IMG/VR virus record: IMGVR_UViG_3300036790_000248
Coordinates: 1 to 62,346 of that record
Direction: 5' to 3' (one strand)
Source: a virus
Taxonomy: Duplodnaviria > Caudoviricetes
Length of the DNA stretch: 62,346 bases
Part shown: in pieces, positions 8,804-13,569 of the stretch
How positions within the stretch are numbered: position 1 is the stretch's first letter
Layout of the letters: every line of letters begins with the position of its first letter
Program-made: the position numbers and the translations under genes
The notes under the pieces: model-generated
What the model was told of the DNA's origin: nothing
Database searches by the model: none
Seen by the model: the letters and a program-made list of their open reading frames with translations, nothing else

Positions 8804-9276
8804 TTTCCCTCCGGATTCAACGTCGTCGTTTTCGATTGAAGTTGAGTCACTTCGGTTGTCTGCGTAACGAGTTGCGCCTGCACCACGGCAGTCTGCGGCA
8901 AGGGGCCGGGCATTTGCGGGACGATATCCTTCACGAAGGGGATCTTGGTCACCGAGAAGTCCACAACGGAATCGACCACATACCCAAACATGGCCGCCAC
9001 GGGAGCAAACTGCGTAATCATGGAAACGCCCCATGAATAGTTCTCCCAGCCGAAGTAGGCGAGAGCTTTGTCAGTCACTCCCGGAGTGAACAGCAGCCAA
9101 AAGGCCGTGCCGTCGATGAAGGCGCGCACTAGCAGAGGGGCCCACGATCTTTGCAGCCAATGGGTGTAACTGGTGGCAATGGGATTCGGCGGATTGATGC
9201 CGAAATAAGCCCTCTTGAGCCAGAAGGTGGCCATCCCGATGGTAAACCAGAGCCAGAGCCAGAGTTCGTGCTTCAT
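8800..9276 (-). CDS. Multi-pass membrane protein, holin-like candidate
   Basis: About 3 hydrophobic segments; TGATG coupling with collagen gene. Confidence 0.6.
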   Translation of the reverse strand: MKHELWLWLWFTIGMATFWLKRAYFGINPPNPIATSYTHWLQRSWAPLLVRAFIDGTAFWLLFTPGVTDKALAYFGWENYSWGVSMITQFAPVAAMFGYVVDSVVDFSVTKIPFVKDIVPQMPGPLPQTAVVQAQLVTQTTEVTQLQSKTTTLNPEGK

Positions 9277-9860
9277 CAGTGGCACCCCGAAAGCGTGACC
9301 GTGCCGTTATGCGCGGTCGTGAGCTTGGAACAGATGAAGGAGGGAGGCATCGCGCCGGCAGGGCCTTGCTTGCCCGTAGCCCCAGTCGGCCCGGTTGCGC
9401 CGGTTGCGCCCTTCGGCCCGGCGGGGCCTGTGGCTCCAGCCACGCCCTGCACGCCCTGCGGCCCGGTAGCTCCCTGCGGGCCGGTAGGCCCAGTAGCTCC
9501 CTGTGCGCCCTGACTCCCAGCCGGGCCGGGAGAGCCGGGAGGCCCAGATGGCCCCGGCGGCCCAACCTGCGGCACGTACCCCGCGCCGGAATCGACGAGG
9601 ATCGCGCCGTTGCTGAGGCATACGACGGGGATCGCGGCGGTGCCAATGCCGGGAGGACACGGCGCGGCGGTCGTGGCGGCGGTGAACGAGATCGTGGTCG
9701 TGGGCGATGCGCCCGGCTGCGGGATCACGTAGATCGGCCCCTGGATGCACGTGGCTCCAGCGGGCGCGGTCGTAGGACACTTGACGACTTGGCCGTGCGC
9801 CGTCGCTGCAAACGGCAGCAGCAGAAGCAGCAGGGTTAGCAGGGCCCGGTGGATACGCAT
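9276..9860 (-). CDS. Collagen-like (Gly-X-Y) protein with signal peptide
   Basis: AGGAGG RBS; [23 protein letters not shown] signal; about 20 G-X-Y triplets; 6 Cys. Confidence 0.85.
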
Positions 9861-11491
9861 ACTGGCTTTCCTCCTACTGCGATTTGGTGCGAGCCGTTGA
9901 CTGCGTGCTGGACGCCGTCGAGGGACTCGTAGGTCGTGTAGCCTGCGGGAACGGTGACCGTGGTGCATCCCGTGCCGCCGATCGTGTTTGGACAAGTGTA
10001 GCCGGAGTTGGAGTCGGTGGCGGAGGAATCGTAGACGAATAATTCGGGTGAGCCGCCGGAGCTGGTGAATGGTTCCGCGTAGACCGTGCCGGCAGGATTA
10101 GCGAACGTGCCGGGCACGCCGCCGATCATCCACAGCGCCAGACGGTCGAATCCGTTGCCGCCCAGCGTACCGACGAGGGCCGTGAACGATCCCTTGCCGT
10201 CCATCTGGTACCAGTCGCAATCCTGATAGCCGAGGAAGGCGCAGTAGAGATAGCGCCGGGTCGCGTCGGCTTCAAGGCAATCCCCGGTGGTGCAGAGCAT
10301 GGATTTGGTGCCAAACTCGTCCGCCGTCTTGGGCATCGGGATCAGATGCGTGAAGAAGGTGCCGTTGTGGGACGCCCCGGACTGCGAGACGCATCCCGCG
10401 GTGAGTTCGCAGACCAGCCAGCCGTTGGTGGCGATGAAGGATTCGGGAGTGTCCGGGTTGCCGTCGGGATGGATGTTGAGAACGTCGATCACCTGCCAGC
10501 CGAACACGGTGGCGGAGGCGACGGTGGGACATCCGGCGGGGTAGCCGTTGGTGCCGCCGACCAGTGTCGGAGTGGTGACCGAGGTGGCGATGAAGTTGTC
10601 GAGGATGTTGCCCGGCTGCACGGTCAGGACGTGGGACGATGGCGAGTAGATGACGGTGGAGGGGGATTTGCAGTTGAGGAACGCCCGGAGGTCGGCCCCG
10701 CGCCGCACCATGGCCTTGTTCATCAGGGCGGTGGTGTTGTTGGACGAGAGTGGAGAGGTGCCGCCACCGCAGCCCGCGCCGTTCCAGCACTGGAAGCCCT
10801 GCGTGTCCCATTCGTTCTGGAGTTCGATCGCGTCGAGCGTGATGCCCAGGCTGTTGAGATGAGTGATGAGGTTCGACAGGAACGTGAACATGGTCGTGTC
10901 GGTTTCCGTCGAGCCGCCCTGGGTGTTGTCGTCGTAAGCGCGGCAGGAGTTAGTCACGTCCGGCGAGCAACAGCCCGCGACGCCGCCGCAGGAGCCGACG
11001 GAGATCGTGCCCGCGAGGGCCGCGCCCGCGGGCGTGTCGCCGAGAGTGTAGATGACTTTCATGGGCGCATTGGGTGCGCCGGTGAATCCCGCCGTCTGCT
11101 TGCAGCGTTGCACGATGCTGTCCAGCGCCGTCCAGTTGAAGGAGTATGTGTGCGCGCCAACCGGGCCGGAGACGGTCATCAGCTGGCCGATCTTGGCGCC
11201 GGAATCCCAGATGCGACAGGTGCCTTGCTGCATGGCCGCGCCCGCGAGGTCGCGCGGCGGCCACGAAGGCGTAGAGGAATTGAAGATCCCGCCGAACATG
11301 CGCGGCAGGATGGACGGGCCGGGTGGCGGCGGAGTCGGGCCGCTGAGGCCGGAGATGGTGGTCTGGCCGCCAATCGCGGTCTGGCCGCCGACGACGGACT
11401 GCGCGGACAGCGGCGACGGCCAAGCTAGCAGCGCCGCCAGCAGGGCAGCGGTAACGAGAGAGATCGCGGTGGCGGTTATTTTATGGCGCAT
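9836..11491 (-). CDS. Secreted clan GH-A glycoside hydrolase (GH39/GH5-like), Cys-rich
   Basis: Signal peptide; [29 protein letters not shown] (acid/base) and ADEFG (nucleophile) motifs. Confidence 0.75.
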
Positions 11492-13569
11492 ACGAAAGCG
11501 TTCGCGTCGATGTTGAGTGTGCCAGCCGCGTTGCTGGTCGCGGCTTGGATTGTGAAGGTAGTTGAGCTGCCCGTAGTGACCGGGCCGCTGATGCGGACAG
11601 GGTAGTAGGTGCCCGTTGCTGCGGCGGCGGCCGCGGCGGTGACCAGCGCCCCGTTGGTGGTCTGGCGTCCGAAGGTGTGCGTCTGGGTGGTGGCGTTCGC
11701 GCCAATCTCTACGTTGAGCGACATGTTGGCCGGGGCGGAGGTGAAGTTGATGCCGAACTCCGCGGATTCGGCGGCGGTAGTGAATTTGTAGGTGCCGACG
11801 CAGTCGAGGAGTACCGCCGTCGCGCCCTGGATCGAGGTCGGATAGGTGAAGGCTGTGGTGCCGCCAGTCGTGCCATTTGAGTACGGCGACGCCGGGCCGA
11901 CCGTGGACGGCAGCGAGGTGGCGATGTTGACGCCGGAGGATCGGAGGCAGCCGGAGCCATCGCCGACCGCGACGATACCGTTGGCCATTCCGCCAAGGGA
12001 CGCCGCGCCGCAGGCGACGTTGGCCGCCGTCGAGCCGGAGAGGCCGAGGAACGAGGTCAGGGATTCGGAGCCGGACAGCGCCGGGAACAGGAGGATCGAG
12101 CCGTTGGTCGACGATGGCCCGGTGCCGGGCAGGCCGATTCCGTATTCCGCAGTGATTGTCGTCGGCGCGAACAGGCAGATGACGTTGGACGCCGCAGCGG
12201 CCTGGCAGGCGGTAAGCGGGTCAGGGCCCTGCTCGACGCCGAGGTAGCCGGCGGTGGAGGCGTTGGAGGTGGCGAGGGAGTTGAAGAATCCCGCGCCGGT
12301 GATGTCCACCGAGTAGAGGGTCGAGCCGCCGGCGGACTTGCCAAGGAGGAAGTTGCCGGTCGGAGTCGTGTCAGTAAATCGCGTCTGCTGGAGAACGGTG
12401 TTGCCGTTGGCGAGTTGCGTCTGTTGCTCGTTGCTGATGGCGAGCAGCGTGGGGATGGAAATAGTCGGGTTCGCACCAGCCGTAACGGTAATCTGGTTCG
12501 TAGTGCCCGTGATGGTAGCGATGCCAGAAGACGAGCATCCGGTGCAAGTGCCGCTGATGGTGATGTTCCCAACGGTCGTATTGCCGGTCACAGAGAGCGT
12601 GCTGCCGAGGCTGACTGGAACGCTGAGAGTCGTCAACGTCGTGTTGAAGTCGGCTATCGTGGTTACGCCGGACGTCAGAGTGATGTCGGTCTGGCTCCAG
12701 GATTGACCTGTACCGGTGCCGGTCGCACCGGTGAATAACTGCCACCCGTTTACAGGCGCGCCGCTTCCGCCAGCCTCAATACGGTTGCGAGGATTCCCGG
12801 AATTGAAGTCTTCGATGATGAGGGTCAGGCCGGTAGCGGTTCCCGGAAGCACGCGGAATAGCGCGCCAGTGGCGCCAGAATTAGTGAAATCGCAGGTCGA
12901 GGTGACGAGGCATTGCCACGCCTGATAGGTGCCGGAAGTTTGCGTCCACCCCACGGCGCCGTAGTCCGTCGCCAAGGGAGTCAGTGCTCCGGTTCGAGCC
13001 CCGCCCGCGCCGCCGGTGAACGATAACACTCCTGTGTTAGCGATCGTGGTCGTGCCCAGGGAATTGCTGATGCTGAGGCCGGGAGTCGTCACAGCGAGAT
13101 TCAGCAGGGCTTGGTTCCCGTTTACGATGCCGCTGGTCTGGAGCACGATGGATGTCCCGCCCCCGCCGCCGCCCGTGCCGGAGACAGCCGCGTCGTTCCA
13201 CGTGAACGGGGCTGGGAGCTGCGGGTAGGCCGGCGATGGGTTGCAGGAGGCGTCGTTCGAGATGGTCACGTCGTACTGGGCCGATTGGGACGCGAAGAAC
13301 AGGAACGATGCGTCCGCGTTGGCGCAGAAGGGATTGGCCAGCGGCGTGGAGGTGACGGTCGAGTAAATAGTGGCGAGGGTCGGCGATCCGGTGATGAACA
13401 CGCTGACCTTGCAGCGCGGGTACGTGCCCATCAGCGGATTCGAGGAGGAGATGCCGCTAACCGAGGCCAGCACATCGCCGGACTGGCACCATTGTTGAAA
13501 CGATCCGTTCTGCGCAAGGGCAGGAGCGGCGCAGGCCAGCAGGAGGAGCGGCAGAAGTCGCCGGATCAT
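11476..13569 (-). CDS. Tail spike/fibre-like protein with signal peptide and N-terminal virion-attachment-like domain (697 aa)
   Basis: MIRRLLPLLLLACAAPALA-Q signal; KVSVFITGSPTLATIYS..TPLANPF.ANADASFLFFA...YDVTIS resembles tailspike head-binding domains; ATGA-coupled to adaptor gene. Confidence 0.7.
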   Translation of the reverse strand: MIRRLLPLLLLACAAPALAQNGSFQQWCQSGDVLASVSGISSSNPLMGTYPRCKVSVFITGSPTLATIYSTVTSTPLANPFCANADASFLFFASQSAQYDVTISNDASCNPSPAYPQLPAPFTWNDAAVSGTGGGGGGTSIVLQTSGIVNGNQALLNLAVTTPGLSISNSLGTTTIANTGVLSFTGGAGGARTGALTPLATDYGAVGWTQTSGTYQAWQCLVTSTCDFTNSGATGALFRVLPGTATGLTLIIEDFNSGNPRNRIEAGGSGAPVNGWQLFTGATGTGTGQSWSQTDITLTSGVTTIADFNTTLTTLSVPVSLGSTLSVTGNTTVGNITISGTCTGCSSSGIATITGTTNQITVTAGANPTISIPTLLAISNEQQTQLANGNTVLQQTRFTDTTPTGNFLLGKSAGGSTLYSVDITGAGFFNSLATSNASTAGYLGVEQGPDPLTACQAAAASNVICLFAPTTITAEYGIGLPGTGPSSTNGSILLFPALSGSESLTSFLGLSGSTAANVACGAASLGGMANGIVAVGDGSGCLRSSGVNIATSLPSTVGPASPYSNGTTGGTTAFTYPTSIQGATAVLLDCVGTYKFTTAAESAEFGINFTSAPANMSLNVEIGANATTQTHTFGRQTTNGALVTAAAAAAATGTYYPVRISGPVTTGSSTTFTIQAATSNAAGTLNIDANAFVCAIK

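Follow-up and report, generated by a model that had tools for sequence, protein, structure and literature searches.

A leader-bearing, cysteine-rich protein with a tailspike-type attachment domain in a short-tailed phage of Acidobacteriota, and a possible export route for tailspikes

The stretch of DNA considered here is the IMG/VR virus record IMGVR_UViG_3300036790_000248, a single contig of 62,346 bp that was analysed as a whole (hereafter the window) and that represents a short-tailed soil phage of Acidobacteriota. On its minus strand, directly after the gene for a head-to-tail adaptor, lie three overlapping genes encoding a putative spike or fibre, a glycoside hydrolase (GH)-like protein and a collagen-like protein (Table 1), and the spike joins two features that are the main subject of this text: an N-terminal leader of the kind that directs export from the cytoplasm and, right behind it, a domain that by profile and model is of the tailspike head-binding type. 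The initial annotation had described the three genes as each starting with a Sec-type signal peptide, and their coordinates, overlaps and N-termini are as claimed. A recount of the Cys residues likewise returned the same numbers as before, namely 14, 20 and 6 in the mature spike, GH-like and collagen-like proteins, against 3 in the 380 amino acids (aa) of the capsid protein. Most of these residues are close neighbours, those of the spike including the pairs 28/53, 82/109, 220/226, 342/345 and 455/465, and taken together the three mature proteins hold 40 Cys in 1370 residues (2.9%) versus 30 in 5808 (0.52%) for 12 leaderless late proteins (odds ratio 5.8, Fisher p 1.4e-12). Ribosome sites were seen 6-7 nucleotides (nt) before the spike ATG (GGGAGG) and before the ATG of the collagen-like gene (AGGAGG), and none was seen ahead of the GH-like start.

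In each of the three leaders a basic n-region precedes a hydrophobic core, and the residues at positions -3 and -1 are small and followed by Gln. The leaders are real features of the Sec type, with a putative signal peptidase I site whose cleavage is predicted. The calls rest on our own heuristics, on direct reading of the sequence and on conservation in relatives. The first two heuristics missed the GH-like and collagen-like proteins, and a looser one was used afterwards; applied to annotated starts, the heuristics flag the three proteins and 0 of 12 late proteins without a leader, while a scan of internal starts flagged one internal Met of the terminase. Gln stands directly after the predicted cut in all seven leader-bearing proteins of the genome, and a small-x-small↓Q pattern (the arrow marking the cut) occurs just ahead of the N-domain in at least 89 of 139 family members, for an overall Gln frequency of 3.5%; small residues followed by Gln in this way argue for a signal peptidase I signature and not for a structural helix. 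Three other readings of the spike N-terminus were set aside. A lipoprotein reading (LLLLAC) fails because that Cys occurs only in the spike and its 92% relative, the rest of the spike family having none at this position of the leader; a start downstream of the leader would fall at the next Met (aa 47), within the N-domain; and export by the Tat system is not favoured in our judgement, the leaders being short and very hydrophobic and the relatives having mostly Lys or mixed Lys/Arg n-regions.

Table 1. Features of the window, with predicted leader cuts marked by an arrow (Cys, cysteine residues; pLDDT, predicted local distance difference test; A1, alignment of 31 N-domains)
Feature	Position	Strand	Remarks
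Spike/fibre gene, 697 aa	11476-13569	-	ATG overlaps adaptor stop (ATGA)
Spike leader MIRRLLPLLLLACAAPALA, aa 1-19	13513-13569	-	ALA↓Q; predicted cut before Gln20
Spike N-domain, aa 20-130	13180-13512	-	Predicted beta domain of tailspike head-binding type; Cys 28/53 and 82/109
Gly linker GTGGGGGG, aa 131-138	13156-13179	-	Low pLDDT; Gly run here in most rows of A1
Spike body, aa 139-697	11476-13155	-	G/S/T-rich, fibre-like, 10 Cys
GH-A-like protein, 551 aa	9836-11491	-	16-nt overlap with spike gene; leader, short Gly/Thr tag, PPPP linker, barrel-like body; 20 Cys
GH-like leader, aa 1-30	11402-11491	-	LSA↓Q; QSVVGG after predicted cut
Collagen-like protein, 194 aa	9276-9860	-	25-nt overlap with GH-like gene; leader, Cys-rich N-part, Gly-X-Y run (about 9348-9569); 6 Cys
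Collagen-like leader, aa 1-23	9792-9860	-	AHG↓Q; QVVKCP after predicted cut
Head-to-tail adaptor, 339 aa	13566-14585	-	2 Cys, without leader
Small membrane-protein genes	8800-9285, 7643-7849		Between endolysin and collagen-like gene
M15-type endolysin	7154-7642	-	PF02557/PF13539 and PHROG endolysin families
Second leader-bearing, Cys-rich late pair, 480 aa and 560 aa	58233-61359	-	12 and 10 Cys
Leader-bearing reading frame, 406 aa	42905-44125	+	9 Cys; outside late arm
Leader-bearing reading frame, 161 aa	49069-49554	+	3 Cys; outside late arm
Further leaders	61225-61302, 59859-59915, 42905-42964, 49069-49140		Predicted cuts ASA↓Q, AAA↓Q, CAA↓Q and AHC↓Q, respectively

The segment behind the spike leader had been noted as resembling tailspike virion-attachment domains, with a Foldseek comparison against tailspike head-binding domains proposed as a check, and profile, Foldseek and VIA-align comparisons agree on that likeness. 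Alignment A1 served as the source of both a structural model of the N-domain (pLDDT 85) and a profile. Run against all PDB sequences, the profile matches only the tailspike N-termini of the phages Pan3 (E 1e-3) and Pam1 (E 0.3), and Foldseek assigns the model a probability of 1.0 for the same two (E 1.8e-3). VIA-align returned Z scores of 8.3 for the Pan3 tailspike N-terminus, 7.7 for the Pam1 entry labelled 'tailspike head-binding domain', 7.3 for Sf6 and 6.2-6.7 for many entries of the P22 head-binding domain, with fold matches spanning 79-85 residues at a root-mean-square deviation (rmsd) of 2.2-3.2. In BFVD the N-domain has 14 matches at E<=1e-3, of which 13 are proteins 4-9 times the length of the model (target-based template-modelling score, TMt, 0.06-0.23), and the five named ones are pectate-lyase, tail-spike, EPS-depolymerase, 'conserved phage protein' or uncharacterised viral proteins. 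By tblastn, 'head-binding domain' proteins of Escherichia coli phages were recovered at E 3e-5 to 6e-4; the 'head-binding domain-containing protein' of E. coli phage Alux-21 has the core motif in common with the spike and lacks both leader and Cys, the domain standing at its very start. Searches of the PDB sequence set with single sequences returned only rows at chance level, and no match for the GH-like protein. We make the assignment because these modest scores agree on one kind of domain at one position of the protein, and on profile and model comparison the N-domain is of the tailspike head-binding (tail-attachment) type, of the P22/Pam1 kind.

The spike carries the only head-binding-type domain in the 62-kb genome (profile E 1.4e-55, the next reading frame scoring 0.61), and its relatives behave as those of a modular protein. 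Five homologues match over the full length at 47-92% identity, and in the others (384-1125 aa) only the first 15-19% of the query is common, at 62-70% identity, with unrelated bodies behind it; overall the same N-domain is borne by bodies of 384-2330 aa that are encoded beside tail genes or the adaptor gene. Sharing of the N-domain alone is, by sequence comparison, the modular layout seen in tail fibres and tailspikes. The ESM Atlas clusters nearest to the spike body are all viral (C1q, DUF5907 and Mtd_N), with scores of 0.85-0.89 that serve as a lead only. A complex prediction with three N-domain copies and the adaptor as scored partner reached 0.24 versus a mark of 0.32, and since controls were absent it counts neither way. 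Leader, attachment domain, Gly linker and fibre-like body together are best explained if the 697-aa protein is a tailspike or fibre of this short-tailed phage, an interpretation which, taken jointly with the export and docking route set out below, we consider slightly better than an even bet on sequence and model grounds.

The combination of leader and N-domain is widespread. A search with the capsid protein returned 50 related viral loci (64-99% identity) and no relative among bacterial genome contigs. The N-domain is held by 23 of the 50 loci, about 10 of which have it within about 30 nt of the adaptor stop and the others 0.5-7 kb beyond, and a leader-like N-terminus was found in 19 of these 23, the four without it being L007, L008, L013 and L025. 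When residues 1-140 of the spike were scanned against 1.84 billion representatives, 2082 clusters matched at E<=1e-3, 744 of them at E<=1e-10, and in the matched clusters the N-domain sits nearly always at the extreme N-terminus of proteins of 110-2328 aa. The leader heuristic flagged 141 of the 150 best representatives, and the other 9 either begin inside the leader or have a leader-like stretch just ahead of the domain. Conservation of the signal peptides in homologues, which had been suggested as a further check, is thus borne out across hundreds of diverged relatives, in which the leader sequences drift while the n/h/c pattern is kept. Among family members of at least 300 aa (n=134) the median Cys content is 1.9%, and the Cys total is even in 96. 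In bacterial genomes the N-domain is found mainly in Acidobacteriota (Sulfotelmatobacter, Bryobacterales, Granulicella and Tunturiibacter); a search of bacterial genomes with a second alignment (A2) gave 10 loci, 4 of which were examined, and one relative, in Granulicella sp. S156, adjoins a terminase gene, another occurring in Tunturiibacter gelidiferens.

The four loci without a leader offer an internal comparison, because each encodes, immediately behind the adaptor, a leaderless N-domain protein in the equivalent position. These versions have 1-3 Cys in about 440 aa, versus 0.98-3.2% Cys in the complete leader-bearing reading frames, and the first conserved Cys is Ala in the three that are part of A1 and, by direct reading, in L007 as well. 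At L013, genes for membrane proteins and lysis come immediately behind the leaderless fibre, with no other large reading frame between. A query with a leaderless fibre collected 44 proteins, with a median of 1.86% Cys in the 14 leader-like ones and of 0.49% in the 30 without a leader (Mann-Whitney p 6.8e-6), and the threshold misfiled the leader-bearing, Cys-rich P0201 as leaderless, an error that works against this result. That Cys richness goes with the leader is therefore supported by the sequences. In a tree of 62 rows, from which a 63rd was left out because it lacks the anchor motif, the best topology requires 8 changes of leader state, and at least 2 are forced by well-supported branches. 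P0197, P0198 and P0199 form a well-supported sister group (SH-aLRT 99), two members of which have the leader and the first conserved Cys, the third having neither and 14 Cys in its body; this split may reflect a recent loss or gain of the leader. L013 also holds, at 17522-18067 (+) and beside an endolysin-like gene, a frame whose internal start gives MKRFLIAPLLVWCLSMIAC..., a lipoprotein-type leader, and whose product is a candidate outer-membrane spanin.

The two genes that overlap behind the spike are less readily placed. The initial annotation had called the first a glycoside hydrolase, a label that look-alike clusters and a sequence motif favour and that family searches leave unmatched, the protein having no Pfam family, no PHROG family and no match among PDB sequences. 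Its ESM Atlas model (predicted template-modelling score, pTM, 0.78) resembles clusters carrying the Cellulase (GH5), GH39 and GH42 families with TM scores of 0.62-0.67 and feature scores of 0.93-0.94, with just 152-158 features in common. In an alignment of the query and 7 relatives, all 8 sequences have a leader, 12 Cys are invariant, and so is the motif QNEWD, within which N226-E227 is unchanged in 8 of 8; E350, E362 and E392 are likewise invariant and are candidates for the nucleophile. Enzymes of clan GH-A have an Asn-Glu acid/base pair and a second catalytic Glu, and the invariant QNEWD fits that pair. All 8 sequences also have, ahead of the enzyme body (aa 31-64; 11300-11401), a GG-x4-GG...I tag and a PPPP linker, and this tag could be a docking strand for a partner. 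The collagen-like protein matches PF01391 (E 6.3e-16; 58.3 bits for a cut-off of 27.2) as well as PHROG collagen-like tail-fibre families.

The surroundings of the three genes are those of a late structural operon. Bases 1-152 recur at 62195-62346 with 151 of 152 identical, a repetition that either stems from overlap in a circular assembly or is a short terminal repeat; given this overlap the contig is probably a complete circular assembly, and no tRNA gene was found in the window. The long minus-strand arm opens with a large terminase (phrog_2, E 3.6e-10), followed by a weak portal match (E 7.3e-4), the major head protein (phrog_9953, E 1.7e-6), two small proteins, the adaptor and the three genes discussed above, after which come small membrane proteins, the M15-type endolysin and proteins of 449 and 1318 aa. 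The adaptor label given at the outset holds. Although the 339-aa protein has no Pfam or PHROG family and a profile search of PDB sequences was without match, its AlphaFold model (pLDDT 82.5) is placed by Foldseek (probability 0.97-1.0, TMt 0.45-0.60) with chains of 195-243 aa from podovirus portal-tail complexes, best with GP4 (8jov_G; E 2.4e-4, probability 1.0) and further with SU10, VP1, N4, A4, DEV, KHP30 and phicrAss001, and by this modelled fold and its place between head and tail genes it is taken as a podovirus head-to-tail adaptor (T7 gp11-like). It is about 100 aa longer than its matched chains, the extra part being beta-rich (about residues 43-235) and a candidate platform for spike docking. 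Elsewhere in the window, the 480-aa member of the second leader-bearing late pair, a second fibre at 59917-61359, starts at 61359 or 61302; the spike-type N-domain was not found in it (hhalign probability 0.2), and neither member of the pair has a PHROG family match.

Export and oxidative folding are very likely. Late expression of the structural operon would yield the spike, which would pass unfolded through the Sec channel of the host and be cut by signal peptidase I before Gln20, and it would then fold, form its disulfides and trimerise in the periplasm, while capsid, portal, adaptor and nozzle would be built in the cytoplasm. Once the holin had opened the inner membrane, both pools would mix within the still-closed outer membrane and the spikes would dock through their N-domains; the GH-A-like enzyme and the collagen-like protein would be exported in the same way and would then be carried by the spike or work unattached on host surface sugars. 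Purified P22 tailspikes attach in vitro, and in P22 attachment is the last step of assembly and free of chaperones. The endolysin of this phage has no leader, no membrane anchor and no hydrophobic N-terminus, which would fit a large-hole holin that lets the compartments mix. Late docking is plausible for these two reasons and because phage phi18:3, compared below, has leader-bearing proteins that are labelled from tandem mass spectrometry (MS/MS), and we regard docking of the spike on virions at lysis as the best reading and as marginally the more probable outcome. For the wider scheme of two-compartment assembly, in which head and tail hub would be cytoplasmic and the spikes, perhaps with enzyme partners, would be Sec-exported, Gln-trimmed, disulfide-bonded and added between holin triggering and outer-membrane rupture, we put the chances at about even. 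What lifts the present case above a fibre-like gene with just a leader is that here the leader precedes a domain identified as one for virion attachment, that leaderless counterparts fill the equivalent slot, that the genome has no second domain of this kind, and that there are relatives in culture.

The strongest alternative accepts export and parts from this route thereafter. The three proteins would never join the particle and would instead work unattached, in the periplasm or after release, as enzymes and adhesins that strip away or loosen host exopolysaccharide, which could help progeny escape, keep them from sticking to debris or exclude other phages; the N-domain would then be an oligomerising or surface-anchoring module, and a leaderless protein (the nozzle at 1080-5036, or the product of 5026-6375) would recognise the host. 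Such large leaderless tail proteins are indeed encoded in the genome, the hydrolase and the collagen-like protein carry no attachment domain, and at least four more leader-bearing proteins are encoded, two of them outside the late arm. Leader-bearing phage genes have moreover been interpreted as host-envelope modifiers in the accessible part of one study (PMC10367356). This account sits poorly with the fact that the sole head-binding-type domain of the genome is that of the spike, and with an N-domain that stays 62-70% identical while bodies swap, which points to a conserved binding partner. It is also opposed by the leaderless sister versions, which occupy the same slot after the adaptor with no other large reading frame before the membrane-protein and lysis genes, and by the overlaps that couple the genes to the structural operon; we regard it as unlikely, if far from negligible.

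A less probable account, which we consider doubtful, holds that the hydrophobic N-terminus is not used for export at all, the spike assembling in the cytoplasm with this segment buried in the tail or cut by another protease, and its Cys oxidising only after release into oxidising, acidic soil water. Phage-tail disulfides formed after assembly are described in the available part of one report (PMC13576161), and some leaderless relatives are fairly Cys-rich (P0199, 1.9%). The signal peptidase I signature noted above speaks against it, as do leaders that drift freely yet keep their n/h/c pattern, and the loss of the leader is accompanied by loss of the first conserved Cys. Cargo genes are commonly found between tail genes and lysis genes. 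That the three genes are prophage cargo ('morons') altering the host surface, unrelated to the lytic cycle, is very improbable in spite of this position and of the family members in acidobacterial chromosomes (Granulicella sp. S156, by the terminase gene, and T. gelidiferens), since the frames overlap the adaptor gene and each other and leave no room for a promoter of their own, the N-domain is a virion-attachment fold, and the same arrangement occurs in the phages Tunturi 1 and 2, which the accessible text of their report describes as lytic and for which no integrase is annotated (PMC11924767).

For the preferred interpretation, an exported tailspike that docks at lysis, a number of observations count on the other side. 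The N-domain scores no more than modestly (profile E 1e-3, Foldseek E 1.8e-3), a note issued with the aligner states that best Z values of 7-8 are common for models without a clear relative, and the spike has no Pfam (E<=0.01) or PHROG family. The leader calls come from heuristics and conservation, and the query of the representative scan included the leader, so that leader-bearing matches were favoured. The N-domain has no match in 27 of the 50 loci, most of which end soon after the adaptor gene, and L032 has 7 kb past the adaptor without such a match. The coupling of leader and Cys is imperfect, in that the leaderless P0184, P0199 and P0200 hold 1.5-1.9% Cys and the leader-bearing P0206 is without both N-domain Cys; its statistics ignore kinship, and with only 2 supported independent pairs a sign test is uninformative. 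The accessible main text on the Tunturi phages (PMC11924767) contains neither 'signal peptide' nor 'mass spectrometry' nor 'SDS-PAGE'. The likeness to phi18:3 is one of leaders, place and annotation, and virion preparations can carry contaminants. Finally, the GH-like and collagen-like proteins show no recognisable head-binding or virion-attachment domain, so that the original description of all three proteins as tail appendages, to which the attachment domain of the spike lends substance, exceeds the evidence for the other two.

Tailed phages are held to build their particles entirely within the cytoplasm, and folding in that compartment without disulfides has its textbook model in the tailspike. 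A tailspike with an export signal and disulfides would depart from both, and the assembly route, if confirmed, would be new for tailed phages: with a cleavable leader on a head-binding domain in 2000 or more protein clusters, the final step of assembly could take place across a membrane, and thousands of phage lineages that infect Acidobacteriota and other bacteria of soil and water would rely on this route. It would also explain why such receptor-binding proteins may fail in cytoplasmic expression, would change the annotation of leader-bearing phage genes, which are now often taken as cargo or host-modifying, and would widen the range of enzymes that can be mounted on phage tails to include disulfide-stabilised ones of the extracellular type.

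The host Sec pathway is used before release by the coat proteins of filamentous phages and by Sec- or signal-arrest-release (SAR)-exported endolysins; filamentous phages, however, are put together at the membrane and need no lysis, and endolysins form no part of the virion, so that neither is a receptor-binding protein of a tailed phage. Searches of the open-access literature for a precedent returned no paper on leader-bearing tail fibres or tailspikes, and the accessible portions of PMC5026251, PMC12946066, PMC9658991 and PMC5384007 contain nothing that bears on leader-bearing tailspikes. The closest architectural parallels are the tailspikes P22 gp9 and Sf6 gp14 (PDB 1lkt, 2vky, 8u1o, 7ukj and 7sg7), which, like the spike, begin with a beta domain (about 110 residues) that a linker joins to an interchangeable body for cutting the receptor, and whose head-binding domains match the N-domain with Z 6.0-7.3 and an rmsd of 2.2-2.8 over 79-84 residues; they differ in being without a leader, and identity is just 7-11%. 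A P22 tailspike without a leader is also the usual view in the accessible part of a preprint (10.64898/2026.09.13.751334). The closest folds to the N-domain are the tailspike N-termini of the cyanopodophages Pan3 (9vyg) and Pam1 (7eeq), both solved within tail complexes, with which it has a core motif in common (approximately TGT..A.iY....t.L.NP..A...G); their aligned region begins at about residue 10, which leaves no room for a leader.

Leaders on phage proteins near the lysis genes have parallels in other phages. The record of Cellulophaga phage phi18:3 reportedly goes back to a study by Holmfeldt and others in 2013. This cultured podovirus of a diderm host (NC_021794) encodes three consecutive leader-bearing proteins, gp085-gp087, just ahead of its lysis genes, which the record annotates as 'structural' or 'tail protein ... 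experimental MS/MS proteomics'; it differs from the present phage in its Bacteroidota host and in that gp085-gp087 are Cys-poor (0, 1 and 3 Cys). In phages of Porphyromonas gingivalis, Sec leaders are predicted to expose an N-terminal Gln (the 'Q rule'; Matrishin and others 2023, PMC10367356), and the Gln that follows the predicted cut in these Acidobacteriota phages recalls that Bacteroidetes rule. The leader-bearing genes named in the accessible part of that study are those for capsid proteins, spanins and five proteins of unknown function, tail parts being unmentioned there, and they are interpreted as modifiers of the host outer membrane.

The nearest cultured counterparts are Tunturi 1 and 2 (PP887698 and PP885685; PMC11924767), plaque-forming podoviruses of Tunturiibacter psychrotolerans in which the N-domain is present. 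Tunturi 2 has the same gene order as this phage, with terminase, portal, capsid and adaptor 28-33% identical, and after its 'tail protein' gp11 come gp12, with leader and N-domain, the 'tail fiber protein' gp13 and the 'pectin lyase' gp14, all three leader-bearing; gp12 is its only large protein with the N-domain. Among its small genes, the 97-aa gp72 (51949-52242; loci L067/L068) has a weak match to the N-domain core (E 8.4e-4 over 40 positions). The Tunturi phages are distant relatives and carry other bodies on the spike, and since both grow in culture on T. psychrotolerans X5P2, they make the reading of the spike as an exported tailspike directly testable.

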